Source: a virus
Taxonomy: Duplodnaviria > Caudoviricetes
Virus record (IMG/VR): IMGVR_UViG_2700989005_000001
Span: 1 to 64,000 of that record
Direction: 5' to 3' (one strand)
Length of the DNA stretch: 64,000 nucleotides
Shown: piece after piece, positions 5,990 to 39,989 of the stretch
How the letters are laid out: each line of letters starts with the position of its first letter
Numbering within the stretch: the stretch's first letter is position 1
Position numbers and translations under genes: made by a program
The notes under the pieces: generated by a model
What the model saw: the letters and a program-made list of their open reading frames with translations, nothing else
Database searches by the model: none
Told to the model about the DNA's origin: nothing

Positions 5990-7366
5990 ATGATAATTGA
6001 ATACGTTATGTCTGCGACGGGTCATGCTCGTCTTGGTGCAGCACATAAACTAATGGACGTGGTTGACACGTCCTATTTGCGTAAAATACTAGACACAGCA
6101 CAAGATCTCGACGGTGTTCATAAAATCAGTATGTTGTATAACGCATACACTGAAAAGAAAGTCGGTAAGCAAATTAAAGACTTGTTCGGTGATTCTGTAT
6201 ACAAGATTCATGTCGATTCTGGCGGTCTTCAGATTGTTAACTTAGGTCTAGAGAATACACCAGAACTTCGTAAAGCAGTTTACGAGAATCAAGCAGAGTC
6301 TGGTGATATTGGCATGTGTTTCGATGAAATCCCGTTGCACAATGAAGCACAAGGTGGTGGTTCTGCTCGTATCAACACGAAAGACAAGGTCTTCATGTAT
6401 GATCTAGCGTACAAATACGGTGTTAAAACAGGTAAGAACATACGCGCTCAGATTGAAACATATCTTGAGAAAGAAAGCGATTGTAAACCGTACATAATCT
6501 TACAAGGCAACTCAGACGATGACTTTAAGGCATTCAGTGATGGTATAATGTCACAACTTGAAGGCGTTGAGCATCACATTGCTGGGTGTGCTGCTGCCGA
6601 TACATGTATTGGTAATGGCGTGCGTGAGTCTATTGACATGATGAGTGTCATTCCGAAGCTCAACATCCCAGATAAAGCAAAGAAATCTGTGCATATGCTA
6701 GGTGTCGGTTCTGTTAAGCGATTGTTGCCTGCTGTAGCTCTTATCAGAAGCGGTTATTTCGGTGATGATTTTCACATTAGCTACGACTCATCAACTCACA
6801 CTGGTTGTTTAACCAATCGTGAATACACAGATAAGCTCGGTCGTCGTCGTAAGATCTCAGGTCACGGCATCTTTAAAGATGGTAAGAAATTACCGTCGCG
6901 TGAACTAGATGAAATGCTAGATGAAGTGTGGGGTCGTTTCGGTCATGTGTTACCTCGGGGTAAGGAAGAGTTCAAAGAGTTCGCAACACGATTGTGGTTG
7001 AAAGAACTCGACAAAGAAACGATGACAGACGAAGATATTGTGTTTGAAGTTGCTTGTAATATGTGTATAATCTTATCACAAGTCAATAATTTCCAAGCAA
7101 TCATCTCCGAAACGTTTGACTTGAATACACCGAAAGCAGTTGATTTATCATCATTCTTCGATGGTTCTGTTGAGAAAAAAGAGCCGCAATCGGGCTTCAA
7201 GCATTGGTCGAAAGAACGTCGTCTAGACGTTTTAAACAAATTACTTGATGTGAAAGACGTTGCTGCATATCAGCGATGGCACGCAAGTCATATTGACAAG
7301 CTACCATCTATGCGTATTCGTCGCGGTACAACTGCTGAATTCCCAGCTTTCAAAGAACAAGAATAG
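5990..7366 (+). CDS. TGT-fold 7-deazaguanine transglycosylase (DpdA/TGT-like)
   Basis: HVDSGGLQ, FDEIP, HMLGVG and SYDSST motifs; embedded in preQ0 synthesis genes. Confidence 0.8.
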   Translation: MIIEYVMSATGHARLGAAHKLMDVVDTSYLRKILDTAQDLDGVHKISMLYNAYTEKKVGKQIKDLFGDSVYKIHVDSGGLQIVNLGLENTPELRKAVYENQAESGDIGMCFDEIPLHNEAQGGGSARINTKDKVFMYDLAYKYGVKTGKNIRAQIETYLEKESDCKPYIILQGNSDDDFKAFSDGIMSQLEGVEHHIAGCAAADTCIGNGVRESIDMMSVIPKLNIPDKAKKSVHMLGVGSVKRLLPAVALIRSGYFGDDFHISYDSSTHTGCLTNREYTDKLGRRRKISGHGIFKDGKKLPSRELDEMLDEVWGRFGHVLPRGKEEFKEFATRLWLKELDKETMTDEDIVFEVACNMCIILSQVNNFQAIISETFDLNTPKAVDLSSFFDGSVEKKEPQSGFKHWSKERRLDVLNKLLDVKDVAAYQRWHASHIDKLPSMRIRRGTTAEFPAFKEQE

Positions 7367-32463: not shown

Positions 32464-33295
32464 ATTGGACTATCTATTATCATCGCAGTATTCAGCGTCG
32501 TGCTAATGATAGACTCACACGAGCAAATCATGTCTAAAGAATACAGAAACTTTGTCTTGATATTCAATGCCATTTGCTGTATAGTCAATCTAGCTAACAT
32601 GATTGTGATTCACAAATACGGAGTAACACTATGAGCTTGACAATACTACTAATGACACTTCTATGCTGTGCAATACTCACTGGCATGAGTATCTTCAGCT
32701 TCATTAACAAACCTAGATTCGTGAAACTAGTAATCACTGCTGTTCTAGGCTTTGTCTCGTATGTTCTACTACACGTAACGGCAGGCGCAATATGAATCAA
32801 ACTATCAAAGCAATATGCATAGACAATACTTCAACTCGTATCGATAAACCAGAACCACCAAGCGGCATTACTCTAGGCAAAGAATATGTCGTTCACATGT
32901 ATAACGTAAACGAACATACAAATAAACCACCTATGATTCGTATTACTAATGACAACAACCAACGAGCAAGCTATGTCGCTGCACGCTTTAATCTATCAAT
33001 AGGATAAACTCATGTTCGCACTATCAATCTTAATTCTGATTCTCACTACATATCTGTTTGTAACCGATAAATCAAAACGAACAGTTCCATTCGTGGCTCT
33101 GCTAATAACAACTGCGTTTAACTGTATCATTCAGTATTACCTAATTGATATTCTATCATTGAGCTTTAAACTATCGTAATGCAAACACTAATCAATCTAC
33201 TAAACGATATACCTATCGGCTACCTCATGCTTGTTCTATGTGCTCTAGCAGCTATAGCCGGTTGGTGCCTGAGCGATATATCAAACGATGACTAA
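32461..33295 (+). CDS. four small membrane proteins (32461-32634, 32631-32795, 33012-33179, 33179-33295) plus 32792-33007
   Basis: hand-translated 38-57 aa hydrophobic ORFs with ATGA/TAATG overlaps. Confidence 0.65.
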
Positions 33296-33386
33296 AAACG
33301 CTTAGAATCGCTCTCACAGCGTCTCAGAGCATGGTACAGATACGATTGTTTTTAATATATCGCACCATGCCTCGTTTAAATGCACA

Positions 33387-33495
33387 TGTGTATAAATCTG
33401 TGGATAATATGTGTATGAGATTGTGCATAAGTGTCTGAAATCTGTGTATAAAAACATGATTTAGCTGTGCATAAGTCTGTGGATAATGTGGATAA
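33387..33495. promoter_or_regulatory. DnaA-box array (candidate replication origin or DnaA-titration locus)
   Basis: TGTGNATAA at 33387, 33399, 33422, 33443, 33466, 33478, 33487; TGTGTATGA at 33410; intergenic. Confidence 0.75.
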
Positions 33496-33665
33496 CTTTT
33501 TAGTGAAAAAATGGTGAAAGACTCATCGGCTCCTGTGTGGTACGCGGCAGTCTAAAACCTTACACCATTTATGAAAATCTAATTCGCTTCGCATCTTCTT
33601 GCTTGACAGCCAGCGGCATTATGTGAGAGAATGCAAAGAGATTTGAACTGCCTACGGAGGTAATT

Positions 33666-33812
33666 GTGATTACATTGGCGTTATTTTATATGAGTCGCGA
33701 CATGCAATACAGCGAGCGACCAAGTGACTTGTACCTTGGTACATGTATTTTAGACTTTGCATTAATCGCCACGATGTTCTGTGGTGTAATGATGTTCACT
33801 GGTAATTGGTAA
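33666..33812 (+). CDS. 48-aa small membrane protein
   Basis: GGAGGT RBS, GTG start, TTGACA promoter at about 33603. Confidence 0.6.
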   Translation: MITLALFYMSRDMQYSERPSDLYLGTCILDFALIATMFCGVMMFTGNW

Positions 33813-34135
33813 TGTTGTTTAAGAATTACAGAGTGAATCGCCATGTTCGTGCTCGTGCTATAGAGTTATTGAATTGTGGTGAGTTGCATCGCGTGTATAC
33901 TTGTTTAGAGTTACATCGTGGTGTGAGTGACGAGATGGTTAGTTTGATTAAGCTTAAACTAAAGCATTTGCAGCGTATGTACGTACGGCAGAGTGATTTG
34001 CCGAATGATTTAGAAGATTGTTATTCTTTTATCTGTGCGTATCACCCGCCTTGTGAACATCGTAAGTTGCGTGAATATGAGCGTAAGTCGTGGTTGAAAT
34101 ACATCATAGAGAACATTAATAAGGTAAAGATATGA
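33812..34135 (+). CDS. YTC...RKxWL family paralog
   Basis: YTC and ERKSWLKYII. Confidence 0.65.
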   Translation: MLFKNYRVNRHVRARAIELLNCGELHRVYTCLELHRGVSDEMVSLIKLKLKHLQRMYVRQSDLPNDLEDCYSFICAYHPPCEHRKLREYERKSWLKYIIENINKVKI

Positions 34136-34440
34136 AGAAGTACCGATTGGGTAATTTGTTGCGTGGTGGTTGGTCTGGTGAGTTTGCCAGTTTAGAAGAG
34201 GCGTGGGTTCAGTTAGGTTCGCGTTTTCTACTATCATTTCCGTGTGAGAAATGGGAGAAAGACATTGGTATGTCTATCAATGAAGATGGTGGTCGTACTG
34301 TGTATATGTATGTTCAAGAAGAGAACAAGTATGGTCAATTAGATTGGGCTTGTTGTAAGAACGGTGTGTTCTATATGAACGAACGAGTGCCAGTAACGGC
34401 AGACGATTACAAGCGTTGCAGTGATGTAGAATTTTTCTAA
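34132..34440 (+). CDS. hypothetical protein
   Basis: AAGG RBS, ATGA overlap. Confidence 0.7.
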   Translation: MKKYRLGNLLRGGWSGEFASLEEAWVQLGSRFLLSFPCEKWEKDIGMSINEDGGRTVYMYVQEENKYGQLDWACCKNGVFYMNERVPVTADDYKRCSDVEFF

Positions 34441-34450
34441 GGGTTATAAG

Positions 34451-35059
34451 ATGAAACGAATTGAAAGACATAAGAAAGTAGTAGACAAGAAAGCGATTAT
34501 GCCGAGCGGTAGTATGGTACGAGTTGAGACGTACTACAACACATGGTCTGGTTATTTGAATTGCCTTGACTCGGGTGATGGTATACGTGGTATAGAGCAA
34601 CCGACTTATATGCTAGTATCTGACAATGGTGCTTTTTACTCAGTTGAAGAAGATAAAGTAAATGGTAACAAGCAGACACAGACAAAATACGATGGTCAGT
34701 TGGTACTTGTACATGCTCGATTGAAGTTGTCAGCGAAAGATTGGGATTGGTACCCTTGTAAGTGGAAGAGTGGTCGTCTTGTATATGCGTATAAAGAAAC
34801 TGATTTTGTCGATGAAGAGCACGAGCTAGTTGTCGGTGAGATACTAGACATTTATGCCGCAAGCGATAGTACATCGTCATATGCACATGACGCGACAGTT
34901 GTTGTATCACGTCCGACACAAATTGCTGTTGAGACGTATGGTAAACTAGTAGTGTTTACGGTTGGTTCTGATACAGATGAACTCGTATCTGATTGTGGTG
35001 ATTATCGTATTGATGGTCGATATGCTGCTAGTCAGTACGATGAAGAGCTTCATTCGTAA
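34451..35059 (+). CDS. hypothetical protein
   Basis: ORF with AAGG RBS. Confidence 0.7.
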   Translation: MKRIERHKKVVDKKAIMPSGSMVRVETYYNTWSGYLNCLDSGDGIRGIEQPTYMLVSDNGAFYSVEEDKVNGNKQTQTKYDGQLVLVHARLKLSAKDWDWYPCKWKSGRLVYAYKETDFVDEEHELVVGEILDIYAASDSTSSYAHDATVVVSRPTQIAVETYGKLVVFTVGSDTDELVSDCGDYRIDGRYAASQYDEELHS

Positions 35060-35096: not shown

Positions 35097-35128
35097 TATA
35101 TTCTACAGTTTTTGAATTGGAGGATAAT

Positions 35129-36043
35129 ATGACTAGAATTAAATGGACACCTGAACGTCTTAAAGAAGATGCATTGAAATACAAGACTCGTACTGAATGG
35201 TGTAAAAACTCAAGTGGAGCGTACAATGCTGCTCGAAACCGTGGTTTATTAGATGAGTGTTGTGCTCATATGAAGTCAAGTCAGAGACCAAACGGATTTT
35301 GGAATTTAGAAACACTTCAAGAAGATGCATCCAAGTATAATTCTCGTTCTGAATGGGAGAAACGGTCTAGAAGTGCATATTATGCTGCTCAAAGGCGTGG
35401 TTTATTAGATGAGTGTTGTGCTCATATGAAGCCATCGACTAAAACGTTGATTAATCGTTGTATATACCGAATCTATGCTGGCAACGAGATTTACATTGGT
35501 CTAACTTATGATGTTGATGTTCGTTTCCGTGAACATAAAACAAAAACAAAGAAAATTATCAAGTTGATTGAGCGTCATGGTATTGATAATGTGAAGTTCG
35601 AGCAAATAACTGATTACATGGACCAAGAACTCGCTCAGATTGCTGAGGCAGAACACATAGAGAGTTATAGAAACAATGATTGGGTTATTTTAAACCGTGC
35701 AAAAGCTGGGGCGTTAGGGAAAGCTAGATTGAAATGGAATTTAGAAACACTTCAAGAAGATGCATCCAAGTATAATTCTCGTTCTGAATGGGAGAAACGG
35801 TCTAGAAGTGCATATTACATCGCTCAGAAAAGAGGTCTCCTTGATGAGTGCTGTGCTCATATGACACGATTGAAAAGACCAAACGGATTTTGGAATTTAG
35901 AAACACTTAAAGAAGATGCATCCGTTTACAAGACTCGTAATGAATGGCGAACAAAATCAAGTAATGCTTATAGCGCAGCTAAGCGACTGGGATTAATTGA
36001 TGAGTGCTGCGGTCATATGCCGAAAAGAGCCAAGCGAAAATAA
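35129..36043 (+). CDS. GIY-YIG (Seg-like) homing endonuclease with four ~50-aa repeats
   Basis: central CIY..YIG..R..EH domain; repeats W.LE.L.EDA..Y..R.EW...S..AY..A...GLLDECCAHM. Confidence 0.8.
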   Translation: MTRIKWTPERLKEDALKYKTRTEWCKNSSGAYNAARNRGLLDECCAHMKSSQRPNGFWNLETLQEDASKYNSRSEWEKRSRSAYYAAQRRGLLDECCAHMKPSTKTLINRCIYRIYAGNEIYIGLTYDVDVRFREHKTKTKKIIKLIERHGIDNVKFEQITDYMDQELAQIAEAEHIESYRNNDWVILNRAKAGALGKARLKWNLETLQEDASKYNSRSEWEKRSRSAYYIAQKRGLLDECCAHMTRLKRPNGFWNLETLKEDASVYKTRNEWRTKSSNAYSAAKRLGLIDECCGHMPKRAKRK

Positions 36044-38666: not shown

Positions 38667-39989
38667 ATGACTTTAGCTGAACTAGCAGTAGAACATCCGT
38701 ATTACTGTGCTGATAGTAATTACCATAGTAACGAGTCGGGTGGTGTATTTGAGACAATGACAGAGTTTTTAGACGAGTTCGAAGACGCTGACGTTGATTA
38801 TAATCTAGTATTCCGTTGGGATGTCAAGCCGAACTTGTCTGAAGACTGCGAAACACCGCTTGATACGTACTACGCCGAGATCTTTATGATGCATCAACGT
38901 AAAGGTATTTTCGCGCCGTTCTTCATTCGTTCTATTACTGAAGACGAAGTACCGCGTTTTATCGAGTACTTGAAAGTACATCATCAAACAATGCAACAAC
39001 TATGGAAGCCACTATGATCATTAATATTCTAGCGTTTTATCTACTTGTCGCACTTGGTGCTTATCTGTATATTGCTGGTGGTGATTATGCCATGTACAAG
39101 CTCAAAGGCAAGTTAGACAACAAGTTCCCGATTACATCAATCGAAACGCATAAGTGCATTGCTTTCTTTAGTTTAATCTGGTTCGCACTTGTGCTATTCT
39201 TTATCAGAGACCGTATGCTTGATATGGTCAACTATTTCACGGGAAATAAAAAATGAAAGATTTAATTGTAGGTATTGCGACTGTTTTCGTAGTCGCGTTT
39301 ATGGCGATTGTTGGGGTTATCTGGTCGATAATTGAATTCCTCGTCGGGCTGGTGGTACTATTAGGTGCTGTCATCATCGGTATTGTTGCGACTGTACTCG
39401 GGGCGTTTCTCGCAGCAATTACATGGCCATTTGTAGAAGCTCATAAAGCTTACAAACGTAAGAAAAATGATTAATCTAAGATCATTGCTCGCCAGAGTCA
39501 AACAAGAGCGTGATGGTCCTGTATTCGATGAATGTCGATGTACTGTATGTCATAAAGACTTTGCAGTTGCAGATTGTATTCATGATTACGGGCATCACGA
39601 CGGTTGGGAAATGCCACCTTATACTGAAATTCAATGCCCTGAGTGTGAATGTGGTGGTTGTATTGAAGATTTCTGGTCGAGTGAAAAAGCAATTATTGAA
39701 CATGGTGAATATCTACGCGAACATAAACCATGTCAATTTGAAGAATACAAGACGTACTTCCCAGACGTGTATGGGGTTGATAATGAAACTCAAAAAAGGT
39801 AGTGTTTTAGAAGAGACTTTGCTCGGCGATGCGTTCAACTATGAAATTGTCTCGCCAGTGACGGTTCGGAAAGACAAGTATTCATTTGTAATGCAAGTTA
39901 TAAGTGTAGCTGGTAAGAAGATCGTTAATGGTTATCGTGCAAACATGACCATTAACAAAACGTCTAGTCGATTTAAAGTCATAAAGTGA
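38667..39989 (+). CDS. run of hypothetical genes (38667-39017, 39014-39256 membrane, 39253-39474 membrane, 39467-39802 Zn-finger, 39783-39989)
   Basis: coupled ORFs; hydrophobic segments and CxxC pairs. Confidence 0.65.

Follow-up and report, generated by a model that had tools for sequence, protein, structure and literature searches.

The largest non-coding gap in the genome of a virulent T4-type Vibrio phage contains eight phased DnaA boxes, an arrangement from which we infer that the phage probably recruits the DnaA of its host. The window, by which we mean the whole 64,000-nt stretch analysed, is part of a virus record of 246,964 bp, and the array studied lies at 33387-33495. All eight boxes are predicted sites that read in one direction, as TGTGNATAA on the + strand (= TTATNCACA on the - strand). 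An earlier note on this DNA had claimed seven perfect + strand TGTGNATAA sites, at 33387, 33399, 33422, 33443, 33466, 33478 and 33487, and a motif scan reproduced all of them; three of the seven are TGTGGATAA, as it had said, the one-mismatch box that it placed at 33410 is present and reads TGTGTATGA, and its start-to-start spacings of 12, 11, 12, 21, 23, 12 and 9 bp are exact. The sites are thus spaced by ~11.4 bp or double that, three box pairs are separated by 3-bp gaps, and no reverse-oriented box with one mismatch or fewer occurs within the island.

Box matches in the 64,000-nt window number 13 as compared with 4.4 expected, a total reached in none of 100 shuffles, while genome-wide there are 25 perfect boxes (both strands) against ~7.3 expected per strand. 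A scan of the whole genome for further clusters, a check that had been proposed from the window, returned the array as the sole cluster in 246,964 bp; it holds eight sites with at most one mismatch in a 150-bp window, and no such window elsewhere in the genome holds more than three. For any one box, the Poisson probability that six more lie within 109 bp is 1.6e-18, and the chance of such a cluster in the genome is about 1e-17. DnaA-box clusters, as defined from PMC2533591, comprise at least four closely packed intergenic boxes with no more than one mismatch to TTATNCACA; here 109 bp contain eight boxes, of which seven are perfect. On these grounds we file the array, as a predicted element in a new setting, under the DnaA-box-cluster kind, in the sense of a place outside oriC where DnaA binds stably.

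The closest named relatives of the phage are the Vibrio alginolyticus myoviruses phi-Grn1 (98%), XZ1 and ValKK3, and more distant ones are KVP40, phi-pp2, the VS1/VS2/QD01 group and nt-1/CZ01. Islands from ten phages were aligned, and then those of the nine box-bearing phages. How many boxes there are, and how they are ordered, oriented and spaced, does not differ among three long-separated clades, one made up of the window, phi-Grn1, ValKK3 and XZ1, another of VS1, VS2 and QD01, and the third of nt-1 and CZ01, between which a neighbouring 202-aa protein is ~60% identical. Between clades, DNA identity is 78-84% in the array as compared with 69-70% in the neighbouring gene. Across the nine box-form phages, 59 of the 64 fixed box positions are invariant, against 4 of 8 N positions and 16 of 37 spacer positions (Fisher test on fixed versus N and spacer invariance, p 4.5e-8, a value that overstates independence because the nine rows stand for three independent lineages). 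Selection thus appears to act on the box positions and not on the surrounding DNA, with the DnaA consensus as the apparent unit under purifying selection. Because the array is under selection, the observation exceeds what the earlier note had claimed.

The individual boxes, all on the + strand, show the same pattern. Box 2 (TGTGGATAA, 33399-33407) and box 4 (TGTGCATAA, 33422-33430) have the same letters in all nine box-form phages. The free position N is T or C among relatives in box 1 (TGTGTATAA, 33387-33395), for which nt-1 has a one-mismatch form, T or G in box 5 (TGTGTATAA, 33443-33451), and C or G in box 6 (TGTGCATAA, 33466-33474). Box 3 (TGTGTATGA, 33410-33418), with its one mismatch, is degenerate in each clade, with TGTG retained. 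Box 7 (TGTGGATAA, 33478-33486) is TGTGGATTA in the VS and nt-1 clades, and box 8 (TGTGGATAA, 33487-33495), which abuts box 7, is CGTGGATAA in the same clades. When four public runs were compared with the window, the only differences inside the array, among those listed in a table that leaves out 54 less-supported ones, fell at 33391, which is N in box 1 and is where run X2 varies, and at spacer position 33396, run X4 having no cover over 33458-33645. Contigs of run X2 diverge from the window exactly at 33293/33298, and a mosaic junction marks the island's left edge in this run, in phi-Grn1 and between clades.

The intergenic gap is, as reported, 370 bp, from the stop of a 38-aa ORF to a GTG at 33666, and the island is the longest stretch of the genome without an ORF of at least 50 aa outside the tRNA cluster (27 tRNAs at 110,760-117,509); no tRNA genes lie within the window. 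The 38-aa ORF (33179-33295, + strand), whose equivalent is annotated in XZ1 as a 117-bp CDS, has its stop at 33293-33295, which forms the left edge of the island. There follows a left conserved block (33296-33380), kept in box-bearing and box-less relatives and partly in D491s/6E35.1a, with the elements AAAACGCTTAGAAT (33296-33308), CTCAGAGCATGGTACA (33323-33338) and CGCACCATGCCTCGTT (33361-33376) and an AT-rich patch at 33340-33360. The AT-rich stretch previously noted at 33344-33360 is present but weak, the 20-mer at 33340 falling only in the least stable 0.37% of the 20-nt windows of the genome. Two further features that had been picked out are likewise present in the window but, by alignment, not kept in the VS and nt-1 clades: the GCATGGT/ACCATGC arms at 33329-33335 and 33364-33370, and the one-mismatch IHF-like site AATCATGTTTTTA (33449-33461, - strand), which is found in the ValKK3 clade.

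To the right of the array, a block at 33496-33600 that includes CTCATCGGCTCCTGTGTGGTA is conserved in Schizotequatrovirus-type phages and much less so in nt-1, the identity of this block between the window and VS2 being 69%, and between the window and nt-1 50%. It leads into a predicted sigma-70-type early promoter (33603-33632, + strand), with TTGACA at 33603-33608, an 18-nt spacer and a TG-extended GAGAAT at 33627-33632, which scores 10 of 12 consensus matches plus the TG in a consensus scan, is kept in all Schizotequatrovirus rows of the alignment and is recognisable in nt-1. As a recurring element, the promoter motif GCTTAGAAT was sought in the genome and has a single occurrence per strand. 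A GGAGG ribosome-binding site (33656-33660, + strand) precedes the first gene downstream of the island, a hydrophobic 48-aa ORF with a GTG start (33666-33812, + strand) that belongs to phrog_16778 (E 2.3e-33), a family without assigned function; its homologue follows the island in every relative compared, including D491s.

Other readings of the island were tried and rejected. As an RNA gene it gave only two noise matches to eukaryotic snoRNA families in Rfam (E up to 10), and its inverted repeats at 33329/33364 and 33509/33559 lack compensating changes in the other clades when judged by eye. As coding DNA it offers a - strand ORF that is not conserved, with 47 aa here as compared with 101 aa annotated in QD01, and the boxes are spaced out of frame rather than by multiples of 3. 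Skew in GC or AT was also discarded as a sign of an origin: GC skew tracks the direction of transcription, with no feature at the island.

A survey of relatives, also suggested in advance, gave a divided answer: the array is kept in nt-1, whereas in KVP40 and phi-pp2 the boxes are gone though the flanks are conserved. Both flanking blocks, left and right, persist along with the promoter and the 48-aa ORF in KVP40, phi-pp2, VH1_2019, PVA8 and V09, none of which has boxes, and from KVP40 and phi-pp2 it follows that the array is accessory to this phage group rather than essential. Since the flanks outlast the boxes, they have a function of their own that does not depend on them. Co-oriented pairs of perfect boxes no more than 14 bp apart are absent from all three whole genomes of KVP40, D491s and T4, so that the role of the boxes is dispensable; the nt-1 and QD01 genomes have the array plus one further co-oriented pair each. 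The idea that the array had moved elsewhere in box-less phages was dropped, none being found in the KVP40 or D491s genomes.

The box-less island of KVP40 is patterned. Its central segment is preserved in length and has an AA period of 11.5 bp (0 of 500 shuffles), as compared with 11.4 bp in the box form (0-2 of 500). Positions 8-9 of the boxes (AA) are retained in seven of eight boxes, while positions 1-4, 6 and 7 are retained in 18 of 48 cases (Fisher p 0.001), and position 6 is changed from A to G in five of the eight repeats. Judged by this pattern, the KVP40 segment is not the product of random decay. D491s/6E35.1a retain part of the left block and the ORF, together with remnants resembling boxes 3-4 and a 10-nt tandem repeat of variable copy number. 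What results is an island in which conserved flanks appear to surround an exchangeable, helically phased repeat module; the swapping of repeat modules between retained flanks is typical of iteron origins.

Host DnaA is likely to be the ligand of the array, because the fixed positions are kept, N is free and the phage is without a DnaA of its own (no dnaA in the 246,964-bp genome), and because the composite formed by boxes 6-8 recurs in bacterial genomes, recalling a known Bacillus cluster. This composite, which starts with box 6 and consists of a box, GTC, a box and an abutting box, was searched for with three positions left free and is present in 16 genomes among 185,579 prokaryote species, one genome each; by record title, 14 are Bacillota-type, one is Desulfuromusa and one is another bacterium, and in three of the 16 the match to the window is perfect across 32 nt. 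The 28 flanking ORFs include TsaD (gcp) three times and DnaB_2 twice, the others being assorted housekeeping genes (best 25 of 41 matched families); we take gcp to be the older name of tsaD. In B. subtilis, a conserved DnaA-bound cluster lies downstream of gcp, and stable DnaA binding there needs about four or more densely packed boxes, according to PMC2533591. That a Vibrio phage and distant bacteria have this composite in common is best explained by convergence on, or conservation of, what would be an optimal multi-DnaA site. Capture of the array from a host was considered and set aside: a 20-mer from the left block has no exact match in the same 185,579-species collection, and none of the 16 genomes with the boxes 6-8 composite is a Vibrio.

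The likeness to Bacillus clusters, which according to PMC2533591 also have at least four dense, near-consensus, intergenic boxes, consists of these composite matches; those clusters lie in bacterial chromosomes, mostly of Bacillota here, whereas the array belongs to a virulent T4-type Vibrio phage. The suggestion that host DnaA is bound stands as likely, given that the box pattern fits the DnaA consensus, whereas the label 'oriC-like' that went with it fails: there is no GATC, there are no repeated 13-mers, and all boxes point one way rather than forming two opposed arrays. GATC is absent from 33251-33701, and the count for 33296-33600 is 0 as compared with 11 in the 232-bp E. coli oriC; oriC has three 13-mers where the island has one 20-bp AT patch without repeats, and combines weak ATP-dependent sites with an opposed right-hand array where the island has eight co-oriented strong boxes. 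The left half of oriC (unwinding element, R1, R5M) does resemble the island in having an AT-rich element 5' of co-oriented boxes written as TGTG, and in both the AT-rich part is followed, before the first box, by a short string ATCGCAC, which may be chance.

DnaA-box clusters outside oriC that inactivate, reactivate or recruit DnaA include datA, DARS and, among plasmid and prophage origins that combine box arrays with an initiator of their own, P1 oriR and RK2 oriV. Both datA and DARS need specific box orientations together with IHF or Fis sites, whereas the IHF-like site of the array is not conserved, and the plasmid origins (P1 oriR, RK2 oriV) pair boxes with iterons and a rep gene, none of which was found by the island. 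T5 is a virulent phage type that brings its own replication genes. In T5-like phages, ~8 DnaA boxes, often paired 3 bp apart, lie in a conserved untranslated injection-stop region, and tethering to membrane-bound DnaA is proposed, according to a preprint (bioRxiv 10.1101/866236). About half of the T5 iss boxes have one or two mismatches, whereas those here are nearly all perfect, and the T5 boxes are set in two inverted-repeat units inside the terminal repeat, whereas the array is co-oriented and lies in an internal early-gene region. The array has the three 3-bp-gap pairs and no inverted-repeat units, and the record is classed as linear without end repeats.

For T4 itself, PMC3016281 describes oriE as a set of evenly spaced direct repeats together with a need for an early promoter, and leaves undefined what the repeats do. 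Its repeats are 24-bp-spaced coding repeats inside gene 5, without sequence homology to the array, and DnaA-like 9-mers at oriE are at chance level (seven one-mismatch sites against 7.35 expected in the 4.5-kb locus). Homology with oriE was rejected because of this position within gene 5 and the missing sequence relationship; any likeness is functional and not homologous, because those repeats are gene 5 coding sequence without DnaA-like sites. Regarding the T4 R-loop origins of the oriF/oriG type, a MotA-dependent middle promoter upstream of an unwinding element was not found at the island. AsiA is present in the phage and no MotA_activ match was obtained, in a search that matched no control genome either; literature on KVP40 and nt-1 (PMC2988021) agrees on the absence of MotA. 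With AsiA present and MotA not recognisable, the MotA-dependent R-loop origins of T4 could not be copied as they stand.

The reading that we favour, tentatively and as one whole statement, is that the array serves an accessory origin, or a control region, as an iteron-like module loaded with DnaA. Maintained by selection, it would act in cis as eight protomer sites on which host DnaA builds a phased oligomer. The island would be modular, with a left block containing an easily melted AT patch, a central phased protein-binding array and a right block running into a strong early promoter, and host DnaA would load the central module both here and in the VS and nt-1 clades. Its most likely function would be as an accessory origin, or origin enhancer, that serves phage DNA synthesis in its first rounds: bending induced by DnaA, and opening at the AT patch aided by transcription from the nearby early promoter, would provide an entry point for the phage's own T4-type helicase-loading proteins. 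It is possible, if doubtful, that the island is an origin with an exchangeable initiator module, which would be DnaA in the ValKK3, VS and nt-1 lineages and another factor, or curvature, in KVP40.

Origin function is speculative. Counted in its favour were the variable tandem repeats of D491s, the polarity of the AT patch, as in oriC, and the combination of repeats and early promoter at oriE. Counted against it were an AT patch of ~20 bp that is only in the top 0.37% for instability, the absence of GATC or 13-mers and the lack of a skew feature. The phage, being T4-type, presumably carries its own replisome, so that the usual job of DnaA, the loading of host DnaB, would be unneeded, which also counts against an origin. 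Origins usually mix in weak, ATP-DnaA-specific sites; the perfect boxes here are all high-affinity consensus sites, as in titration clusters, and this too was counted against, as were the lack of co-oriented box pairs in KVP40, D491s and T4 and the survival of the flanks where boxes are missing.

A role as a DnaA sink in trans, like a Bacillus cluster or E. coli datA, in which multiplying phage genomes would titrate or inactivate DnaA and suppress initiation on the host chromosome, seems unlikely. The seven perfect boxes all fit the consensus, boxes 6-8 have the very letters of bacterial clusters outside origins, and box loss in KVP40 and D491s would fit an accessory host-takeover function. 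A sink nevertheless needs no fixed box order or spacing, no conserved flanks and no AA phasing in the box-less form, and one incoming genome supplies only eight sites, so that its effect would probably be late, coming once takeover has normally been settled. The strictly conserved spacing, and the AA phasing that persists in KVP40, argue for what would be a cis-structural role rather than a pure sink, and a cis role is also suggested by the largest ORF-free run and by the fixed number, order and spacing of the boxes. That role could instead be the control of transcription, a DnaA-wrapped segment (in KVP40, a curved one) tuning the promoter at 33603-33632 or blocking read-through from the variable genes upstream, and we regard this too as having little probability. 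DnaA is a known transcription factor (PMC8203912), and such control would couple early expression to the state of host DnaA. The island ends in a conserved predicted promoter, no + strand intrinsic terminator was found in 32500-34500, and AA phasing of 11.4-11.5 bp is common to the box and box-less forms; against this, the boxes lie ~110-220 bp upstream of the -35 hexamer, far for direct activation, and the predicted promoter is equally conserved in the box-less clades.

Readings that part with the favoured one over the ligand, or over what DnaA would do once bound, carry less weight. It is improbable that DnaA is not the ligand and that the repeats are iterons for a phage protein or another host protein, or were selected for intrinsic curvature. 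KVP40 does keep AA phasing without the DnaA recognition bases, the A-to-G change at position 6 (five of eight) suggests another specificity, and the neighbouring small proteins are without assigned functions. Yet the repeats fit the DnaA consensus exactly, down to its free fifth position; the composite is also found in distant bacteria, with DnaA the obvious factor in common; and no candidate phage DNA-binding gene was found beside the island. Very improbable is a role in DNA handling, whether the phage DNA is tethered or paused by DnaA, most of which is membrane-bound, in the way proposed for T5, or the island is a packaging or DNA-end site; packaging in T4-type phages is not known to be site-specific, which counts against a DNA end. 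Records of the PVA8 group, TCU_VP02_YC, 6E35.1a and V05 end or join inside the island, but the break points are at differing positions, also in box-less phages, and contigs of runs X1, X2 and X5 span the island. The three 3-bp-gap pairs recall the paired boxes of T5-like phages, although tethering in T5 is itself only a proposal of the preprint (bioRxiv 10.1101/866236).

An array of DnaA boxes under selection in one branch of the T4 family would show that even such self-sufficient phages engage the host initiation machinery. Textbooks present T4-type phages as the example of replicating without the host initiator; were the island an origin with an exchangeable module, the T4 family would have its first one that depends on DnaA. 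More broadly, phased consensus DnaA-box arrays would then be widespread and largely undescribed phage cis elements that hijack the host initiator. The literature searched gave no description of DnaA boxes in KVP40-type phages and, as a virulent-phage DnaA-box array in print, only that of the T5 preprint (bioRxiv 10.1101/866236), Ori-Finder-style predictions in two other phages being the only other matches. Close relatives with identical flanks, with and without boxes, make natural comparison pairs, and the question is directly testable, since the array is carried by nt-1, QD01 and CZ01, phages of Vibrio natriegens, a laboratory host that is not pathogenic.

A scan of IMG/VR suggests that the phenomenon reaches well beyond this phage group. 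At least 120 contigs there have three or more co-oriented perfect boxes (gaps 0-14 bp), and 56 of the 80 loci listed have at least four perfect boxes within 300 bp, and up to 11, often spaced by 11 bp. No Bac_DnaA appeared beside the 56 arrays among the best 25 of 31 matched families, and the terminase of one array-bearing contig is at best 36% identical to those of named isolates. The 93 ORFs flanking the 56 arrays include 10 Terminase_6N, five Terminase_3, six GP88 and two P22 portal matches, and such terminase and portal neighbours indicate that the IMG/VR arrays sit in real phage DNA.

The left block of the island (33296-33380) contains a motif, AAAAACGCTTAGAATCG, which is also present twice in an unrelated 30-kb viral contig from IMG/VR (L012, reverse strand, 6100-6560). 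There, both copies lie directly 3' of a promoter-like stretch containing TTGAC, the first is followed by TCAGAGCATGG, and the palindrome-like TGTGACATTTTGTCA likewise occurs twice; no DnaA boxes were found in this region of the contig. It may be that the left block is itself portable, as an independent element.

Co-oriented arrays of DnaA boxes are also found in other phages. Among the matches listed, phage contigs at IMG/VR loci L019-L098 carry such arrays with 4-11 perfect boxes, which are frequently TGTGGATAAC and spaced 11 bp apart; in about ten of these listed loci, a large terminase gene encoding 416-420 aa lies ∼1 kb from the array. Within the box-bearing relatives, nt-1 and QD01 each have one additional co-oriented pair of perfect boxes elsewhere in the genome (record positions 39117-39147 and 102409-102429, respectively).

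The exact edges of the island carry extra inserted ORFs of no assigned function. In phi-Grn1, phiGrn1_0284 (181 aa, phrog_32648; L005, 1712-2257) adjoins the left boundary of the island. In nt-1, ORF037 (176 aa, no family; L002, 1863-2393) follows the promoter and precedes the 48-aa ORF. A 308-aa ORF 1.5 kb downstream of the island (35117-36043, + strand) encodes a GIY-YIG domain (E 4.6e-5); its matches to homing-endonuclease PHROGs are weak, and a segment of roughly 60 aa is present in it three times.

The rightward promoter is overlapped by a weak promoter-like site that faces leftward (TTCAAA, 18 nt, CATAAT; 33618-33647, - strand; 9 of 12 matches). Any transcript from this putative site would run into the box array. 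Inspection of the alignment by eye indicated that its hexamers are apparently kept in KVP40 and not in the VS clade.

When mapped onto 33296-33670, several of the database entries for related phages have an end or a join within the island. The right block contains the start points of three records (PVA8, vB_ValM_PVA8 and PC-Liy1), and the left block contains the end of that of TCU_VP02_YC. The 6E35.1a record opens with the initial codons of the 48-aa ORF; in V05, the central segment is joined at its end to a tRNA region, and the records of V09 and TCU-VP04-AIR2 end ∼1 kb from the island. The break points do not fall at one shared position, and box-less phages are among those affected. Assembly trouble, chosen start points and real DNA ends are all candidate causes.

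In the island of D491s, a box-less phage, a 10-nt unit, CAGCCAAGAA, is present in tandem in ∼3.5 copies (L139, 1730-1775), as compared with ∼1.5 in its relative 6E35.1a (L140, 1730-1745). In the whole 246,964-bp genome, GATC is under-represented, with 615 sites as compared with ∼903 expected from base composition.
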